Source: a virus (taxonomy: Duplodnaviria; Heunggongvirae; Uroviricota; Caudoviricetes). Taken from it: a DNA stretch of 42,657 nucleotides. Shown piece by piece: positions 6,310-14,216 of the stretch. The notes under the pieces are model-generated. The model did no database searches and had not been told where the DNA came from. It saw only the letters and a list, made by a program, of their open reading frames with translations. Every line of letters begins with the position of its first letter. The first letter of the stretch is position 1. The position numbers and the translations under genes were made by a program. The stretch spans positions 1 to 42,657 of IMG/VR virus record IMGVR_UViG_2541047850_000006; one strand, written 5' to 3'.

Positions 6310-7077
6310 ATGGACGATTTATCGGTATACGCGAGATCATTGGATAAGGCTAAATACTATGTTTACTGTCTCTATGATACAGAAGACAAGATGAAAAGAC
6401 CGTTTTACATAGGAAAAGGCAAATCGACTCGTTGTCTCGATCACATCAAGTATCCCGATGACTCTCCCAAATCCATGCGGATCAAAGAACTTTTGGCTAA
6501 TAAAAAATTAGGCATAGATATACTTCGTCATGGTATGGATGAAACCACAGCCAAACTTGTTGAGGCGACATGCATCGACCTTATGGGGGTCGGAGAGCTT
6601 ACGAATAAGGTTCGAGGAAGTGGTTCCATGATGGGCAGAATATCACTGGACGCCTACCATCACTTAGTGCTGCAAGAGGAAACTGAAATTGCTCCTGAGC
6701 ACGCCGGTCTTGCCTTCCTGCTAAACAGCACCTACAAGTCAGGAATGTCCGCTCTGGCATTATATGAAGCTACGCGTGGCGTATGGGCAAAGGTTCCAAG
6801 AGACGAGAATCTCAAATATGCCTACGCTACATATGGTGGGCTAATAATGGAAGTTTATCGGATTGAATGCTGGGTCAAAGCCGGTTCTCAGCAGTACTTT
6901 ACAAGGGATATAGCTCTTGGCCCCGACACAAAACGTTATGAATTTGTTGGCAGAATAGCCGATGAGCATATTAGAAAACTGTATGTAGGCAAATTAATCA
7001 AGAAGCCACCAAGCTACGGTAGCCCTTTTGTGAAGGTTGGAGTGGTTAGGACTGAACATAGTGTTAGCGCGGCATAA
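6310..7077 (+). CDS. GIY-YIG nuclease-domain protein (255 aa), stand-alone on the opposite strand
   Basis: N-terminal YYVYCLYD...PFYIGKGK...R..H and downstream Glu/Asn consistent with a GIY-YIG catalytic core; ATG start; followed by a strong terminator. Confidence 0.6.
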   Translation: MDDLSVYARSLDKAKYYVYCLYDTEDKMKRPFYIGKGKSTRCLDHIKYPDDSPKSMRIKELLANKKLGIDILRHGMDETTAKLVEATCIDLMGVGELTNKVRGSGSMMGRISLDAYHHLVLQEETEIAPEHAGLAFLLNSTYKSGMSALALYEATRGVWAKVPRDENLKYAYATYGGLIMEVYRIECWVKAGSQQYFTRDIALGPDTKRYEFVGRIADEHIRKLYVGKLIKKPPSYGSPFVKVGVVRTEHSVSAA

Positions 7078-7140: not shown

Positions 7141-7489
7141 TCATCAACTCTCGTTTGATTTCATCGGTACGCATCGTGACATCGGCAGCTGTGATCGCCT
7201 CGTTCAGTTTCACGATGTCCTCGATTTCCTGCGGTGACTTCTCTGCCAGATGGAAAATGGCTGCGCGAATCACGTCAGAACGGGTGAACTTCTCGAAACG
7301 AGGGATGAACTTCATCATCTCCAGCAGTTCGAAGTATTCGTCTTCCAGTGACATTGTGCGGCTTTTAATTTTCTCTTTGCCACGAGTCGGGCGTCCCTGT
7401 GGTCTGACTGGTTGGCGCAAAGGAGTTGTGTTCTTAGCCGGTGCATCAGGCTCTTTGCGCTTTGCTAGGTCACCCATTTTCATGGACAT
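7130..7489 (-). CDS. ParG-like ribbon-helix-helix centromere-binding protein (partition adaptor)
   Basis: Basic disordered N-terminus followed by an RHH-like segment RTMSLEDEYFELLEMMKF...SDVIRAAIFHLAE; its start overlaps the stop of the upstream ParA gene by 1 nt. Confidence 0.55.
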   Translation of the reverse strand: MSMKMGDLAKRKEPDAPAKNTTPLRQPVRPQGRPTRGKEKIKSRTMSLEDEYFELLEMMKFIPRFEKFTRSDVIRAAIFHLAEKSPQEIEDIVKLNEAITAADVTMRTDEIKRELMKKG

Positions 7490-8157
7490 TATTCTTCTTC
7501 CTCCAGACTCAACAGATAATCTACAAATTCTTCAAACTCGGCTTCCGCCTTTTTGTCGCGCTCGCTACCGGTCATTTCAAAGATAGAACGACCAGACTCT
7601 TCCGCATCATCATAGACGTTGCGGTTATATAGATTGACTGGCGCAGACTCGATGCCAAACGTCTCGACAATCTCTTTAGCCGCCAGAATGCGAGACACTT
7701 GTGATGGCAAAGCCGGGCACTGGTTCATGACCGCGCGGACCTTCACTTTATCGTTTACATTACGAACATTGTCGATAATAGGATCGATGTCACGCAGGGA
7801 TTTCAAATCACGACGCTTAGGACGAAGCGGGATAATGATAACGTCGGCCATCAGCATCGCTTGTCGCTGAATTTCGGAGTCGAAGCCACCAGCATCTACC
7901 ACTACAAACTCAGCTCTACCCTGAAGCGATTTTAGGTGCTTAATGATGTCATCCTGAACGTATGCAAAAGGAATCAGCTCAAGGTCTTCGTTCTGTCGAC
8001 GGTCTTCACACCAGCTCGTTGTCGTGCGCTGAATATCTATATCGGTAATATAAACCTTCTTCTTCTTTTTGACTTTCAGGCAAACGGCAATTTGCTGGGC
8101 AACGGTGGATTTGCCAGGCCCGCCCTTTGTGCCGCCAACCACAAAGATCTTGGTCAT
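7489..8157 (-). CDS. parA: ParA/ParF-type partition ATPase (small type Ib, 222 aa)
   Basis: Deviant Walker A GGTKGGPGKST near the N-terminus; size and absence of an N-terminal HTH fit the ParF class; AGGGAA SD. Confidence 0.8.
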   Translation of the reverse strand: MTKIFVVGGTKGGPGKSTVAQQIAVCLKVKKKKKVYITDIDIQRTTTSWCEDRRQNEDLELIPFAYVQDDIIKHLKSLQGRAEFVVVDAGGFDSEIQRQAMLMADVIIIPLRPKRRDLKSLRDIDPIIDNVRNVNDKVKVRAVMNQCPALPSQVSRILAAKEIVETFGIESAPVNLYNRNVYDDAEESGRSIFEMTGSERDKKAEAEFEEFVDYLLSLEEEE

Positions 8158-8290
8158 TGGAGAGTTCCCTTTGCGTATATAATTATCGTCTGAAACAACT
8201 TGTTTTCTTATATGTGATATAGCCTAAATGCCTACGGCTGCTGTGTAAAGGTTTAATGATAGGTACATAGATTTGGTAAGGACTTAATAA

Positions 8291-8316
8291 CAAAAAACCC
8301 GCCGTAGCGGGTTTAG
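8291..8316 (-). terminator. Rho-independent terminator (AACCCGC-CGTA-GCGGGTT followed by a T-tract on the minus strand)
   Basis: Read directly; immediately downstream of the stop of gene 8320..9096. Confidence 0.7.
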
Positions 8317-8319
8317 GAA

Positions 8320-9096
8320 TTAGTGGTTGGTAAACCTGGCATCAAATGTTGTAACGCCCACTTCAATGTGGCGGTCTTCTTTGGAGATGATGGTGAGAAT
8401 CTGACTAGATGGGTCTATGCTGACAGCCATAGGGTTCCAGTGACGTAACTGAGCCTCTCTGTTCAATAGCAGCGCATCCCACGGTTTGACGCCATTCTGC
8501 CCAATACCACCCTCAACAAGGACATCTATAAATTCTTTATTTAAATTGTCATAGATTTGGACACGCCCGACCAGAAGCATACCGACCGCCCAAATTCTGG
8601 CACCGTAAACCGTCTGATGGTCATCACATACCACATGGTCATGCCAATTGAGAAGGAAATTGTAAACTCTTCTAGCAAGTCCCTTTTGTTCCTTTGAAGG
8701 GGTTACAAATGCCCCTTTGATCTGGACACCAAGGTGAGAGCCTTTTTGTGAGCGAAACTGGAAACGCTTGTAGACGAACCTGGCAATCTGAATGCCGTCA
8801 TCATCTTCTTGTTCATCACCAACTAACTCACGAACACTATGAACTATCTCTGCTTCTGAATACCCCTGCTCGTCAAGATCCATTGCATGTTCTTGAAGCC
8901 AATCTGCATCATGGTCGCCTACAAATGACACTGTCAAACAGTAATCATAATTAGACCCGATCAAAGACCACTCTGTGAGCCGTAAAACAGAAAAATCAGA
9001 GTTAACCATGTAGCCAACTCTGATTTTCTCTCTTGCTTCACATTCAGGGAAATCTGACAGTACTTTTGAATACTCTGCTATGAATGATGGTGACAT
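8320..9096 (-). CDS. Hypothetical protein (258 aa)
   Basis: Track ORF, ATG start abutting the stop of 9097..9495; has its own terminator; no confident domain (a GDHDADW segment is only weakly suggestive). Confidence 0.5.
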   Translation of the reverse strand: MSPSFIAEYSKVLSDFPECEAREKIRVGYMVNSDFSVLRLTEWSLIGSNYDYCLTVSFVGDHDADWLQEHAMDLDEQGYSEAEIVHSVRELVGDEQEDDDGIQIARFVYKRFQFRSQKGSHLGVQIKGAFVTPSKEQKGLARRVYNFLLNWHDHVVCDDHQTVYGARIWAVGMLLVGRVQIYDNLNKEFIDVLVEGGIGQNGVKPWDALLLNREAQLRHWNPMAVSIDPSSQILTIISKEDRHIEVGVTTFDARFTNH

Positions 9097-9495
9097 TTAG
9101 TTAGCAAGCCGCATATCCGTAGATGAATCCAGTTTTGCTATTTTAACATCTACGCGGTATTTATCTTTGATAAATTTAGCTATTTTGCTTTCAATCTCAT
9201 AGAAAGCATCCTGTTCACAACGCACAACATCGGGAAACTGTTTTTCTGGCTTAACAAGAAAACGTAACCGATTGTTGAGCACCATCATTTCTGCAAACAA
9301 TTTGATGGTAAACTTGCCTTCTTCAACGTCACTTTTAAGGTTAACGATGAAACGCTGATCCTTAAGCATACCCGGTTTGTTCATTTCACGAATTTGGAGC
9401 GAGTCATTCCAATGCCGCAACGGAACCGATGCGATCATCTTGGTACAGTCTCTTATCGTCTGAATAGAACGAGATGCGTTAAGCGCAGTATGCAT
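9097..9495 (-). CDS. Hypothetical protein (132 aa)
   Basis: ATG start with strong AAGGTGG SD; 174-bp intergenic region upstream. Confidence 0.5.
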   Translation of the reverse strand: MHTALNASRSIQTIRDCTKMIASVPLRHWNDSLQIREMNKPGMLKDQRFIVNLKSDVEEGKFTIKLFAEMMVLNNRLRFLVKPEKQFPDVVRCEQDAFYEIESKIAKFIKDKYRVDVKIAKLDSSTDMRLAN

Positions 9496-9669
9496 GTTTC
9501 CACCTTAGCCGGTAATAACTTTATGTCATAGCGGCGACCTTGTCGGTTTAGAGGCTACGAGTATGCGTCGATTTATTAAAACAAGGTATGATTTACTTGA
9601 CATCCATGCTTCAAATCTACCTTGTGCTCTAATAATATGCAAATTTTATGTTAGAAAATTCCGCTTTTA

Positions 9670-9978
9670 TTATGGCACTTTTCTGCCCCATCCACACAAT
9701 CGCTCCCCTATCATATTGTGAAAAAGTACTTCCCTTTCAGTCTCTTCGGTCATGAGATCATCACGGCTGATGTATAGCGGTGTAGCCGCATCGCAGAAAA
9801 GCACACCAGAGGATTGAGGCTTAATCACGCAACCACTTATTGTGCAACTCATGATGAACAGTAGAAGCATCTTTGCGCCGTAACTCATCAAGCGTTTCAT
9901 TTTTGACATCCACTGTGCTTTGAAGTCGTTTCCTGTCTTCCTGTTTTGCCTTCTCTTCCATTGCTCGTCGCGCCGCAT
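9670..9978 (-). CDS. Candidate o-spanin (outer-membrane lipoprotein), probably starting at an internal Met near 9909
   Basis: Internal MKRLMSYGAKMLLLFIMSCTISGC resembles a lipoprotein signal with lipobox ISGC; the ORF overlaps the 3' end of the i-spanin candidate in another frame. Confidence 0.4.
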   Translation of the reverse strand: MRRDEQWKRRQNRKTGNDFKAQWMSKMKRLMSYGAKMLLLFIMSCTISGCVIKPQSSGVLFCDAATPLYISRDDLMTEETEREVLFHNMIGERLCGWGRKVP

Positions 9979-11577: not shown

Positions 11578-11856
11578 TTAAAACCACTCCCTGAGCGGGC
11601 GCTCTGGTGTAACCACCCACTCACGGAACACGGAATCATCAAATCCATCGTCAAGAAGACGGATATTAACAAAGTACCCTTCGTTTCGCGTGTATTCTGG
11701 TTCTCCGTCATCAGAAACATCTGTCTCCCTGAACGTAAAACCAATCTCATCAACCAGAACGGCATTCTGCAGCTCTTCGTCCTCTTCCCAGTTAAGTTTC
11801 CTGAGAAATGCCCTGAAATCTGCTTTATCACTGAAACGCAACGTGAAATCTCTCAC
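11578..11856 (-). CDS. Small acidic protein (92 aa), possibly a tail-fiber accessory
   Basis: GTG start overlapping the tail fiber stop (GTGA) with GGGGAGG SD; function unknown. Confidence 0.4.
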   Translation of the reverse strand: MRDFTLRFSDKADFRAFLRKLNWEEDEELQNAVLVDEIGFTFRETDVSDDGEPEYTRNEGYFVNIRLLDDGFDDSVFREWVVTPERPLREWF

Positions 11857-14216
11857 TCCACAACCTCCCCAAGCTGCGCATCTGTTAGCTCTTTATGCCA
11901 GAGACGAAAATTCCTCACATGCCCAAATAAATGGCGTAATCCTGCTGTAGTTTGTCCACCAATGCGAATGGTTGCTGTACTCCGGATATATTCCCATTTG
12001 GTTTTAGTTTCGCTGCTTAACTTACCGTTACTGACTACACATGTGGACCGTTCGGACTTTACCCGCATACCAATAAGCATTTTTTTCAGCCCGGCATTTT
12101 CATTTATTCGTCGGTCTGAACCACCTATATCGCAATACGGAAAACCGTCGTACCCACCTGATGAACCAAACCCCATTACGATCCCCGCTCCGGTTTGATG
12201 ACCGCCGGTATCAAAAACACGCGGCGCTACATTTGGCGTTTTATACCAGTTCTTATGTACCTCACAAAAAACCGTAAAAGGAAGATTATAAAGATTATTC
12301 TTAATCGGAACTGTAACCATATCGCTTGCCCGCGTCGCCGCCGTCGTTCCTGATATAATAAAAGATGATACACACGAACCATCCTCAACCTGAGGGGTAG
12401 CCAGATAAATATAGTCACCAGATTCAACGACACCACCTTTTTTTGGTGCGTATTGTATTGCAGAGGTTATGTAAGTTTCTTTACTTGCTTGAATCGTTGC
12501 CTCTGCAAAAATCCAGCCCGTAACTTCATCTTTGTTAACTCGTGCGGTGAGCCTGTCGGCAGCTACACCGGTGATTTCAACCAATAAAGACCGCGTATTA
12601 ACAATGGCATATCCAAGATTAGATGAAGCGCTGCCATTGAAGGCTTCAAACCTGATCTTTAACAGGAGTTCCAAATCCGTTTTAAATCTGCACGATGTCG
12701 TCACGCACTTATTATCGCCTGATACATCGACAGCCCCCGAGGTTGAAACTACTGCCATATTAAGGGTTGTACTTTGCCCAATTAATGATTCATTACAAAC
12801 AAACTTTCCATAAGTAAAACCAAAACCATCAGTTCCAACCTCAGCGACATTCATATTTGCAGATTTACCCCAAGAAGCTGGAGTTGCTGAATTTAACATG
12901 TAGTTGGTTCGCTGACCTTCAATCAATAAACCTTCTTTTTCAAATCGTGGCTCATTAATTTCCGCCGTTTTCAGTTCGCCAGATTTGTTGATATATGTTG
13001 CCGTTGATGCGCGACTGAAATTAACCTGTTTATCACTGGCAACCTGAACCACATTATCACCAATCTTCACTTTTTTATAACCCGGAGAATAGCCCGTAAT
13101 CATATCCAGCGAATCATTAAAGGGTATCCACACATCCGGCAGCGGCTGTAAAACATATCTGTACGGCTCTGCTGTCTGGTTTGCGTATTCTCTGGCAGCA
13201 TCTTCACTTGCTTTTGCTGCCGTCTGGCTTGCTGCCGATGCTTTCGCCGAGTTCGCCGCCGCTGTTTCGCTCACCTTTGCGTTGGCTTCACTGGTTTTTG
13301 CTGCTTTTTGACTGTTAGCTGATGCAGTGGCAGAAGCAGCCGCCGCGCTTGCAGAACTGGCTGCGGCACTCTCGCTTTGGGCCGCTGCATCCTGACTGCT
13401 TTTCGCCGCAGTTTCACTGGCTTTGGCATTCGTTTCGCTGGTCTTCGCTGCCGTCTGGCTGGACTTTGCGTTAGTTTCACTCGTCTTCGCAGCTTTCTGG
13501 CTGTTAGCCGCGGCAGTTGCTGATCCGGCAGCTGAAGTCGCAGAACCAGCTGCGGCACTCTCGCTTTCGGCTGCCGCCGCCTGGCTGTTTTTTGCTGCGG
13601 TAGCGGAGTTGGCGGCAGCACTCTGACTCGATTTTGCAGCTACCTCGCTATTTTTCGCATTAGTTTCGCTGGTCTTTGAAGCTGTCTCACTCGCTTTTGA
13701 GTTAGTTTCTGATTTTTTGGCCGCTGTTGCGCTCGCTGCCGCCTCTTTAGCTTTTTGTGCAGCGGTGTTAATTATGGGAGTATTTTCTTTATACCATTCT
13801 AGGTTCTCATTGTGCTCATTAACGATCTGCGTAAGGGATTTTACGGTTAATTCCGTGCCATCTTCACGCTCAATTGTTATTTTATCCACAGCAGTCAGCC
13901 AACTACGCATCATTTTTGAATCGGCTGACATGCGAGACATAAGCGCAGTAAAACGAGCACTAAATTGGGTCAAATCACCTTCATAGGTCGTAATTATTCT
14001 GCACGGAACATTTGTTTGGGTGCTGCCACCGTAGGCTTCAACAAGAGTTAACGAAGTGTCACTCTCGATTGATTTTATTTCATATAACTTATTATCGGGG
14101 CCAATCAATATCATACCTGGAAGGACGCCGTTCGTCGTCACTCCCCAGGCTGTGCCTGTTCCCACTACAGTTTTATTTCCTTTAGTGAGATTTATTGTAC
14201 CTTCCCTGTACCACAT
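11853..14216 (-). CDS. Side tail fiber protein (lambdoid Stf-like) with Ala/Ser/Thr-rich KSETNAK-type tandem repeats
   Basis: Repeat block ...AAKKSETNSKASETASKTSETNAKNSE...SQKAAKTSETNAKSSQTAAKTSETNAKASETAAKSSQ... matches my recollection of lambdoid Stf repeats; ATG with SD; located after J. Confidence 0.75.
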   Translation of the reverse strand: MWYREGTINLTKGNKTVVGTGTAWGVTTNGVLPGMILIGPDNKLYEIKSIESDTSLTLVEAYGGSTQTNVPCRIITTYEGDLTQFSARFTALMSRMSADSKMMRSWLTAVDKITIEREDGTELTVKSLTQIVNEHNENLEWYKENTPIINTAAQKAKEAAASATAAKKSETNSKASETASKTSETNAKNSEVAAKSSQSAAANSATAAKNSQAAAAESESAAAGSATSAAGSATAAANSQKAAKTSETNAKSSQTAAKTSETNAKASETAAKSSQDAAAQSESAAASSASAAAASATASANSQKAAKTSEANAKVSETAAANSAKASAASQTAAKASEDAAREYANQTAEPYRYVLQPLPDVWIPFNDSLDMITGYSPGYKKVKIGDNVVQVASDKQVNFSRASTATYINKSGELKTAEINEPRFEKEGLLIEGQRTNYMLNSATPASWGKSANMNVAEVGTDGFGFTYGKFVCNESLIGQSTTLNMAVVSTSGAVDVSGDNKCVTTSCRFKTDLELLLKIRFEAFNGSASSNLGYAIVNTRSLLVEITGVAADRLTARVNKDEVTGWIFAEATIQASKETYITSAIQYAPKKGGVVESGDYIYLATPQVEDGSCVSSFIISGTTAATRASDMVTVPIKNNLYNLPFTVFCEVHKNWYKTPNVAPRVFDTGGHQTGAGIVMGFGSSGGYDGFPYCDIGGSDRRINENAGLKKMLIGMRVKSERSTCVVSNGKLSSETKTKWEYIRSTATIRIGGQTTAGLRHLFGHVRNFRLWHKELTDAQLGEVVE

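Follow-up and report, generated by a model that had tools for sequence, protein, structure and literature searches.

The GNAT/ribbon-helix-helix (RHH) type II toxin-antitoxin systems TacAT, AtaRT, KacAT, ItaRT and GmvAT are coupled bicistronic operons of plasmids and prophages, in which a small partner is encoded upstream of a GNAT-fold protein; the latter is basic, about 160-180 aa long, and recognised by the Acetyltransf_1/7 profiles; as the toxin it acetylates aminoacyl-tRNA, and the antitoxin counteracts it by binding to it directly. The type VII systems (HepT/MntA, TglT/TakA) also consist of two genes, for a small protein and an enzyme-fold protein, the known enzymes being nucleotidyltransferases or kinases; toxin-first operons and enzyme antitoxins are both known, e.g. 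HepT/MntA. Prophages further carry morons, which in the sense of Hendrix and colleagues are autonomous promoter-gene-terminator units. Here we describe a two-gene cassette, whose genes we call A and B, in the Caudoviricetes record IMGVR_UViG_2541047850_000006 (positions 1 to 42,657; this whole stretch of 42,657 nt is referred to as the window). The cassette shares features with all three kinds of unit, and we favour reading it, with a probability of roughly 0.4, as an uncharacterised toxin-antitoxin-like addiction and/or abortive-defence module.

Region 8100-9900 of the window, which holds the cassette, is 100% identical to Escherichia phage PhiR41_1 (PV340561.1) and 98-99% identical to ~110-kb non-mobilizable plasmids of E. 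coli, Shigella sonnei and E. albertii. The flanks of this region match Salmonella phage SSU5, so that the window can be assigned to an SSU5-type phage-plasmid. The genes and signals of the cassette are the following:

9495..9097, minus strand: gene A, a 132-aa open reading frame (ORF) with an ATG start
9096..8320, minus strand: gene B, a 258-aa ORF, its ATG directly after the TAA of A
9506..9500, minus strand: Shine-Dalgarno sequence AAGGTGG of A, 4 nt 5' of its ATG
9642..9614, minus strand: putative sigma-70-type promoter, with -35 TTGCAT (9642..9637), a 17-nt spacer and -10 TAGATT (9619..9614)
9493..9608, minus strand: 5' leader of ~115 nt with hairpins H1-H4, delimited by a covariance model and preceding AAGGTGG and the ATG
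9561..9547, minus strand: conserved leader motif CTCGTAGCCTCTAAA
9496-9669: upstream spacer of 174 bp, reaching an Rz1-like ORF that ends at 9670
8314..8295, minus strand: intrinsic terminator, stem of 8 bp (5 G-C), 4-nt loop, tail TTTTTTGTTATT

An earlier annotation made without database searches (the sequence-only reading) had reported the 132-aa ORF with its AAGGTGG abutting the 258-aa ORF, the 174-bp intergenic region upstream and a clean intrinsic terminator downstream, and all of these were recovered at the positions given above. Stop and start abut at the A/B junction (TAA-ATG, 9099..9094) and no Shine-Dalgarno sequence stands in front of B, which points to translational coupling of B to A. 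The T-rich tail of the terminator runs on to 8286, and the stem-loop closes the unit ahead of the parA promoter region. Both proteins match PHROG families over their full length (A, phrog_2594, E 2e-46; B, phrog_3307, E 6e-90), and this membership, together with dozens of homologues for each, argues that the ORFs are not chance. Both families are annotated 'unknown function'; the fold, pairing and leader described here are not in their annotation.

The two genes form a tight pair. Hidden Markov models (HMMs) of A and B were applied to every fetched locus, translated in six frames, and A was found directly upstream of B in every locus containing B (about 60 loci); the genes usually overlap by 16 nt in relatives and abut in the window lineage. 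The identities of A and of B, compared among 33 distinct pairs (528 comparisons), correlate with r = 0.95. The pair was found in at least eight mutually unrelated contexts, in positions typical of toxin-antitoxin and defence cargo:

SSU5 (SSU5_031/032) and the SSU5-type phage-plasmids of Escherichia, Klebsiella, Cronobacter, Enterobacter and Franconibacter: in each case flanked by the lysis genes and by parA
a P2-like Yersinia frederiksenii prophage: the cassette separates gpV from gpS and neighbours PIN and RelB-YafQ modules
PhiR12 phages (lambdoid): adjacent to int
Acinetobacter plasmids of about 111 kb and 10 kb: the 10-kb ones carry OXA-72
a contig like a plasmid or an integrative and conjugative element: near ArdC
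islands of just the two genes, set among housekeeping genes: at rsmI-LigB (Pectobacterium), downstream of hslO, and at rplI-oapA (Erwinia tasmaniensis)

A and B move together among these unrelated contexts, as a linked, co-evolving pair on mobile elements, which is the pattern generic to toxin-antitoxin genes. This joint movement, with the conserved promoter and the cassette's own terminator, bears out the proposal of the sequence-only reading that the two genes are an autonomous accessory unit.

Disrupted copies were seen as well. In Escherichia phage PhiR12_2 and its siblings (L024:2-1076), B is split by a frameshift into ORFs of 66 and 196 aa beside int, and A is cut by the start of the record; the split could reflect a decaying copy or a sequencing error. 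In K. pneumoniae JAMRMV010000016.1 (L026:3001-4187), a 1-nt deletion truncates A to 80 aa and a 2-nt indel lies near the 3' end of B, the locus being otherwise identical to another one (L036). The frameshifted A was considered as evidence of toxicity and rejected: given the second indel and zero substitutions, the disruption is probably due to assembly errors.

The surroundings of the cassette in SSU5-type elements show it to be one occupant of a constant slot, described by two further features:

8265..9687, minus strand: exchangeable unit (promoter, leader, A, B and terminator), from blastn against relatives
8157..7489, minus strand: ParA ATPase (Pfam MipZ/AAA_31/CbiA/ParA)

The parA gene downstream of A/B is followed by a small ParB-like gene, and on the upstream side lie holin, endolysin and spanin genes, named via the SSU5 annotation of the homologous region (78% identical). 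The GC content of the exchangeable unit is 42.0%, vs 45.8% for the window. In the sister element p009_B, blastn identity is 96-98% up to 8264 and again from 9492, at the start codon of A, and the encoded proteins are 48% (A) and 33% (B) identical to those of the window; from these breakpoints, the A/B coding region and terminator alone were swapped. Recombination breakpoints thus placed at the leader and the terminator enclose proteins that are 30-48% identical within backbones that are 96-98% identical, and such extreme allelic diversification fits conflict or addiction genes.

Three kinds of cargo occupy the slot. (i) SSU5 and the relatives examined from Klebsiella, Cronobacter, Enterobacter and Franconibacter hold homologous, highly diverged A/B alleles, and the A/B cassette is the most widespread and most diversified occupant. 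(ii) Phage Cyrano (plasmid pLF82) is 98% identical to the window up to 8264 and 93% identical from 9688 (blastn), and between these points encodes, on the opposite strand, a TacA1-type antitoxin (PF08681, 8e-26) and a GNAT toxin (PF13508/PF00583), which we call Cyrano KacT; the whole TacA-GNAT cassette is carried by 143 plasmids. (iii) S. Typhi pHCM2 (NZ_CP029901.1; L100:3424-3975 (+)) has just one ORF, of 183 aa, which lies on the opposite strand and is not recognised by Pfam. A query made of the joined flanks matched 306 plasmids, and in 0/306 were the flanks adjacent (within 700 nt). This argues for a cargo slot next to the partition operon that is occupied at all times, and against sporadic insertion. 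The sequence-only reading had envisaged a moron inserted at a contiguous lysis-partition junction, a picture that has to be given up, and the presence/absence comparison that it proposed for related elements turns out instead to be one of alternative occupants: A/B alleles, the TacA-GNAT pair or another ORF is always there.

About 150 nt upstream of A travels with the enterobacterial cassettes, as an alignment across contexts shows. Within it, TTG and GTAGATTT, 17-18 nt apart, are invariant in 13/13 upstream regions from different contexts, and are also kept in the wider enterobacterial set, save for TAAATT variants. Because only 7/12 consensus positions are matched, a generic scan missed this site; going by its sequence, the TTG-17-TAGATT site would be the promoter of the cassette.

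The leader lies within the 174-bp spacer, had gone unmentioned in the sequence-only reading, and ends 3' in CGGCTAAGGTGGAAACATG. Its covariance model (R1) scores 63.3 bits in the window (E 3.6e-13 at 9493-9608), with no other match there, and finds 26 copies: that of the window, L040:3888-4003, L007:5486-5608 and those of 23 other loci. In an alignment of 25 distinct leader sequences, which was itself fitted to the covariance model, 79.5% of cells are paired vs 67% when shuffled (0/500 shuffles reach the observed value), and pairing drops to 30-46% with the partners slid. Both sides change in 24/33 pairs, and Helix 3 is 94.7% paired. Compared with dinucleotide shuffles, the leaders of 9/12 relatives reach z-scores of -2.2 to -4.4; the window leader folds weakly (z -0.62), its H2 and H3 being shortened. 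RNAalifold on plain MAFFT alignments recovered parts of the leader only. In close sister elements (such as p009_B) the leader is nearly identical despite the 33-48% protein identity. An exact 15-mer of the leader was used to search IMG/VR and gave 26 genuine copies, and every copy with a long enough stored sequence has A and then B downstream. Neither the window copy nor the better-folding Erwinia copy has an Rfam match at E up to 5.

A structured leader adjoining the ribosome-binding site suggests tight post-transcriptional control; it would act on translation or stability, perhaps via the invariant basic N-terminus of A. A role for H1 as an operator specific to the A allele was rejected, since identical H1 sequences occur with very different A proteins (L036 vs L013, and the window vs L019). 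RNAalifold also proposed pairing of CCUCU with GGUGG of the ribosome-binding site; this shows no covariation and is not in the individual minimum-free-energy structure, and we keep it as conjecture.

Protein A is basic, with an isoelectric point (pI) of 9.45 in the window and 7.9-9.7 across all alleles. Its family (70 clusters) is larger than that of B, which comprises 19 clusters when grouped at 90% identity and has 49 representatives in a set of 1.84 billion proteins; by hhalign the two families are not related to each other. Two motifs are conserved in A, an N-terminal R-S-I-Q-T-I-R-D-x-T and K-Q-[YF]-P-E, and both are kept in Acinetobacter homologues with unrelated upstream DNA, so that the constraint acts on the protein. 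The structure model of A is confident (pLDDT 82.6); no fold could be assigned to the protein, and it has no recognisable toxin fold. Nothing significant was found for A or B in Pfam, NCBIfam, PADLOC or PDB sequence searches, and B matches no GNAT profile.

Protein B is acidic (pI 5.09, net charge -14), and strongly so across all alleles (pI 4.5-5.2, net charge -8 to -18). Its AlphaFold2 model, built with 17 homologues (pLDDT 76.6, pTM 0.75), has the mixed alpha/beta core of the GNAT fold. Residues 136-141, E-Q-K-G-L-A, lie between a strand (119-130) and a helix (140-148), at the position of GNAT motif A, the pyrophosphate-binding loop Q/R-x-x-G-x-G/A between beta4 and alpha3. The pattern x-x-x-G-x-[GA] is kept in most of 61 family members; the window allele has E first, and in some members the loop is fully canonical (Q-S-S-G-L-G, Q-K-A-G-V-G). 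Q125, Y145, D158, Q161 and W169 do not vary among 48 diverse sequences, and the model places these five residues on beta4, alpha3, the end of beta5 and alpha4, which are the elements lining the active site of GNATs. Sequence comparison gives no such link: the family profile of B meets only the GNAT 7n1l in the PDB, at E 0.74, and hhalign of B with Cyrano KacT gives a probability of 0.3%. On the strength of the model we consider it very likely that B has the GNAT (acyl-CoA N-acyltransferase) fold, as a highly divergent and probably active member, a predicted enzyme that would use an acyl-CoA donor. The sequence-only reading, which could assign no motif to either protein, thus holds at the level of sequence and fails at that of structure, for B.

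Under the reading that we favour, the moderately weak, strictly conserved promoter would drive a transcript of ~1.3 kb, on which the four-hairpin leader would fold just upstream of the strong ribosome-binding site. A would be translated first and B by termination-reinitiation at UAAAUG, and the strong terminator would insulate the partition operon. A harmful activity of one partner would be checked by the other, and the module would stabilise the phage-plasmid or protect the host during lysogeny; we infer both a physical interaction of A with B and toxicity of one of them. This reading draws on the coupled, co-evolving pair, the enzyme-fold partner with conserved active-site positions and the autonomous expression signals, and equally on promiscuous transfer, extreme allelic diversification and interchange with a GNAT toxin-antitoxin pair in the slot by the partition genes. 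As to polarity, the order of the genes and the analogy with GNAT systems speak for B as effector, with A as its tightly co-evolving partner or regulator, as in TacAT/KacAT. The acidity of B, the Trp at the place of the catalytic Tyr, the basicity of A and the slower divergence of A favour the reverse, in which A is the toxin and B neutralises or modifies it as in type VII systems, and this is a real possibility.

The pair may work like a TacAT/KacAT system: it is likewise a coupled bicistronic operon in which a GNAT-fold protein follows the small partner, it is found on plasmids and prophages, and the identical slot holds a TacA1-GNAT pair in sister phage-plasmids. Two features tested for those systems, an RHH antitoxin and a small, basic, Pfam-recognised toxin, are lacking, and the pair is therefore not filed there. 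Several of the differences weigh against the favoured reading more generally. In A, no RHH or DUF1778 domain (TacA1, PF08681) and no recognisable DNA-binding domain is found with Pfam, NCBIfam or the model. B is acidic and has 258 aa, compared with about 170 aa for known GNAT toxins, and its pI of 4.5-5.2 contrasts with 8.7 for the 173-aa Cyrano KacT; the invariant Q125/Y145/D158/Q161/W169 stand in place of a catalytic Tyr, and a Trp falls where that of TacT/AtaT would be. Its acidity, its size and this Trp make direct binding of tRNA doubtful. The ~115-nt structured leader is another departure from the GNAT/RHH type, and B, not A, is the faster-evolving gene among the 33 distinct pairs; in type II systems the antitoxin is usually the faster-diverging partner. 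To the same side belongs a Salmonella 245-kb phage-like contig (L042:4001-4788). It encodes a clear homologue of A (112 aa, E 3e-41 against the A profile), and the next gene, which overlaps it by 4 nt, is not B; its product is an unrelated protein of 150 aa with neither a Pfam nor a PHROG match, so that A may be able to pair with different effectors in a modular way. To argue from a slot that elsewhere has a toxin-antitoxin pair is moreover guilt by position, pHCM2 having an unrelated ORF there; neither A nor B matches a defence model of PADLOC-DB v2 at E up to 1; and nothing specific turned up in the literature searched on A/B, on the accession numbers of the pair, on toxin-antitoxin systems of SSU5 or on antitoxins that are acetyltransferases.

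The toxin-antitoxin-like, exclusion and anti-defence classes named by the sequence-only reading are all live candidates, and the strongest competitor, a serious one if somewhat less probable than the favoured reading, takes in the latter two: A/B could be a non-toxic two-subunit acyltransferase serving lysogenic conversion, superinfection exclusion or anti-defence, with no addiction. The target that B acylates would in that case be basic and come from host or phage (a polyamine, a protein lysine or a molecule like an aminoglycoside), with A as substrate adaptor or regulatory subunit. Phage GNATs can serve as anti-defence proteins, e.g. AcrVA5; B is an acidic GNAT, like enzymes that act on basic substrates, and its fast evolution would fit the tracking of a target in an arms race. 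The expression signals of the unit are also moron-like: the cassette has its own terminator and a promoter inferred to be its own, slightly lower GC, an accessory position between modules and, in the P2-like prophage, the gpV-gpS site. It differs from a moron in that its flanks are joined in no related element, the slot being permanent with replacement of alleles or cassettes. Isolated chromosomal islands and 10-kb plasmids are harder to square with a function specific to phages than with a module that is selfish or stabilises itself, the positional alternative in the slot is a toxin-antitoxin pair, and a GNAT likeness of A was not reproduced by Foldseek. Far less room is left for an ordinary conserved phage-plasmid function, such as a late-lysis or partition accessory expressed by read-through from the lysis operon. 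It would agree with the common strand and location of A/B, lysis genes and par genes across most SSU5-type elements and with the lack of a terminator between the spanin gene and A. The cassette also lives in chromosomes, small plasmids and unrelated prophages with no lysis or par genes adjacent, gives way entirely to a toxin-antitoxin pair or a different ORF in sister elements that are viable, and carries its own conserved promoter; a core role in lysis or partition is essentially excluded by this distribution, and we regard the explanation as highly improbable.

Reversing the pair in the manner of type VII is an improbable alternative when taken as a complete account: basic A would be the toxin, e.g. 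a nucleic-acid binder, and the GNAT B an antitoxin that acylates and inactivates it. The opposite charges of A and B, consistent over the alleles, and the pattern of a more conserved A with a faster-evolving B would fit an enzymatic neutraliser, and A is seen with a different downstream partner in L042. The known type VII enzymes are not acyltransferases, however, and no acetyltransferase antitoxin was found described in the literature searched. A shows no recognisable toxin fold, and coupled translation would yield the toxin first and in excess. A broader proposal, which we hold to be unlikely though less so than the simple reversal, is a three-part conflict module of structured leader RNA, basic A and acidic GNAT B. 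Here B would be no tRNA-acetylating toxin; it would be an enzymatic antitoxin or sensor that acylates A, or else an effector set free when a phage infects or the plasmid is lost, and the leader would be a control or sensing element bound via the invariant R-x-x-Q-T-x-R of A. If B does acylate A as an antitoxin, this would be the first acetyltransferase-type 'type VII' antitoxin, and if the three-part proposal is true, it would be a native addiction/immunity module of SSU5, pKpn and Acinetobacter phage-plasmids in clinical Enterobacterales.

Clinical E. coli, Shigella, Salmonella and Klebsiella commonly carry SSU5-type phage-plasmids (pHCM2, pWPMR2-like, pKpn, pLF82) (10.1101/2025.09.12.675607). 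The maintenance functions of these elements are largely unannotated, and the Klebsiella allele of A alone is present in 4,621 indexed blocks of an assembly collection. A gene family otherwise annotated only as 'hypothetical protein' gains a predicted fold, a partner, regulatory signals and a testable hypothesis, and a slot that holds either the A/B cassette or a classical GNAT toxin-antitoxin pair offers a natural experiment. Should A/B prove to be an addiction or defence module, as we favour, it would represent an additional GNAT-based system, one that has an RNA leader and whose partner is not RHH, and would help to explain the persistence of SSU5-type elements and of the small Acinetobacter OXA-72 plasmids.

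Some further features of the window were noted. Within the 5' part of B, a promoter-like site (8937..8908, minus strand; 10/12 match to the sigma-70 consensus) and an AT-rich 17-pair hairpin with a T-run (9028..8991, minus strand) were both set aside as probably chance occurrences in coding sequence. An ORF of 255 aa at 6310-7077 on the plus strand, opposite to its neighbours, encodes a LEM-3-like GIY-YIG nuclease domain (PF22945, 5.6e-7) and is situated between the parB-like gene and a 249-aa gene; SSU5, pHCM2 and Klebsiella relatives have a DUF2971 gene or other ORFs at this position, which points to a second variable cargo slot. At 11853-14216, on the minus strand, is encoded a 787-aa tail-fibre protein with long Ala/Ser/Thr-rich repeats (variants of KTSETNAK.SETAAKSSQ.AA).

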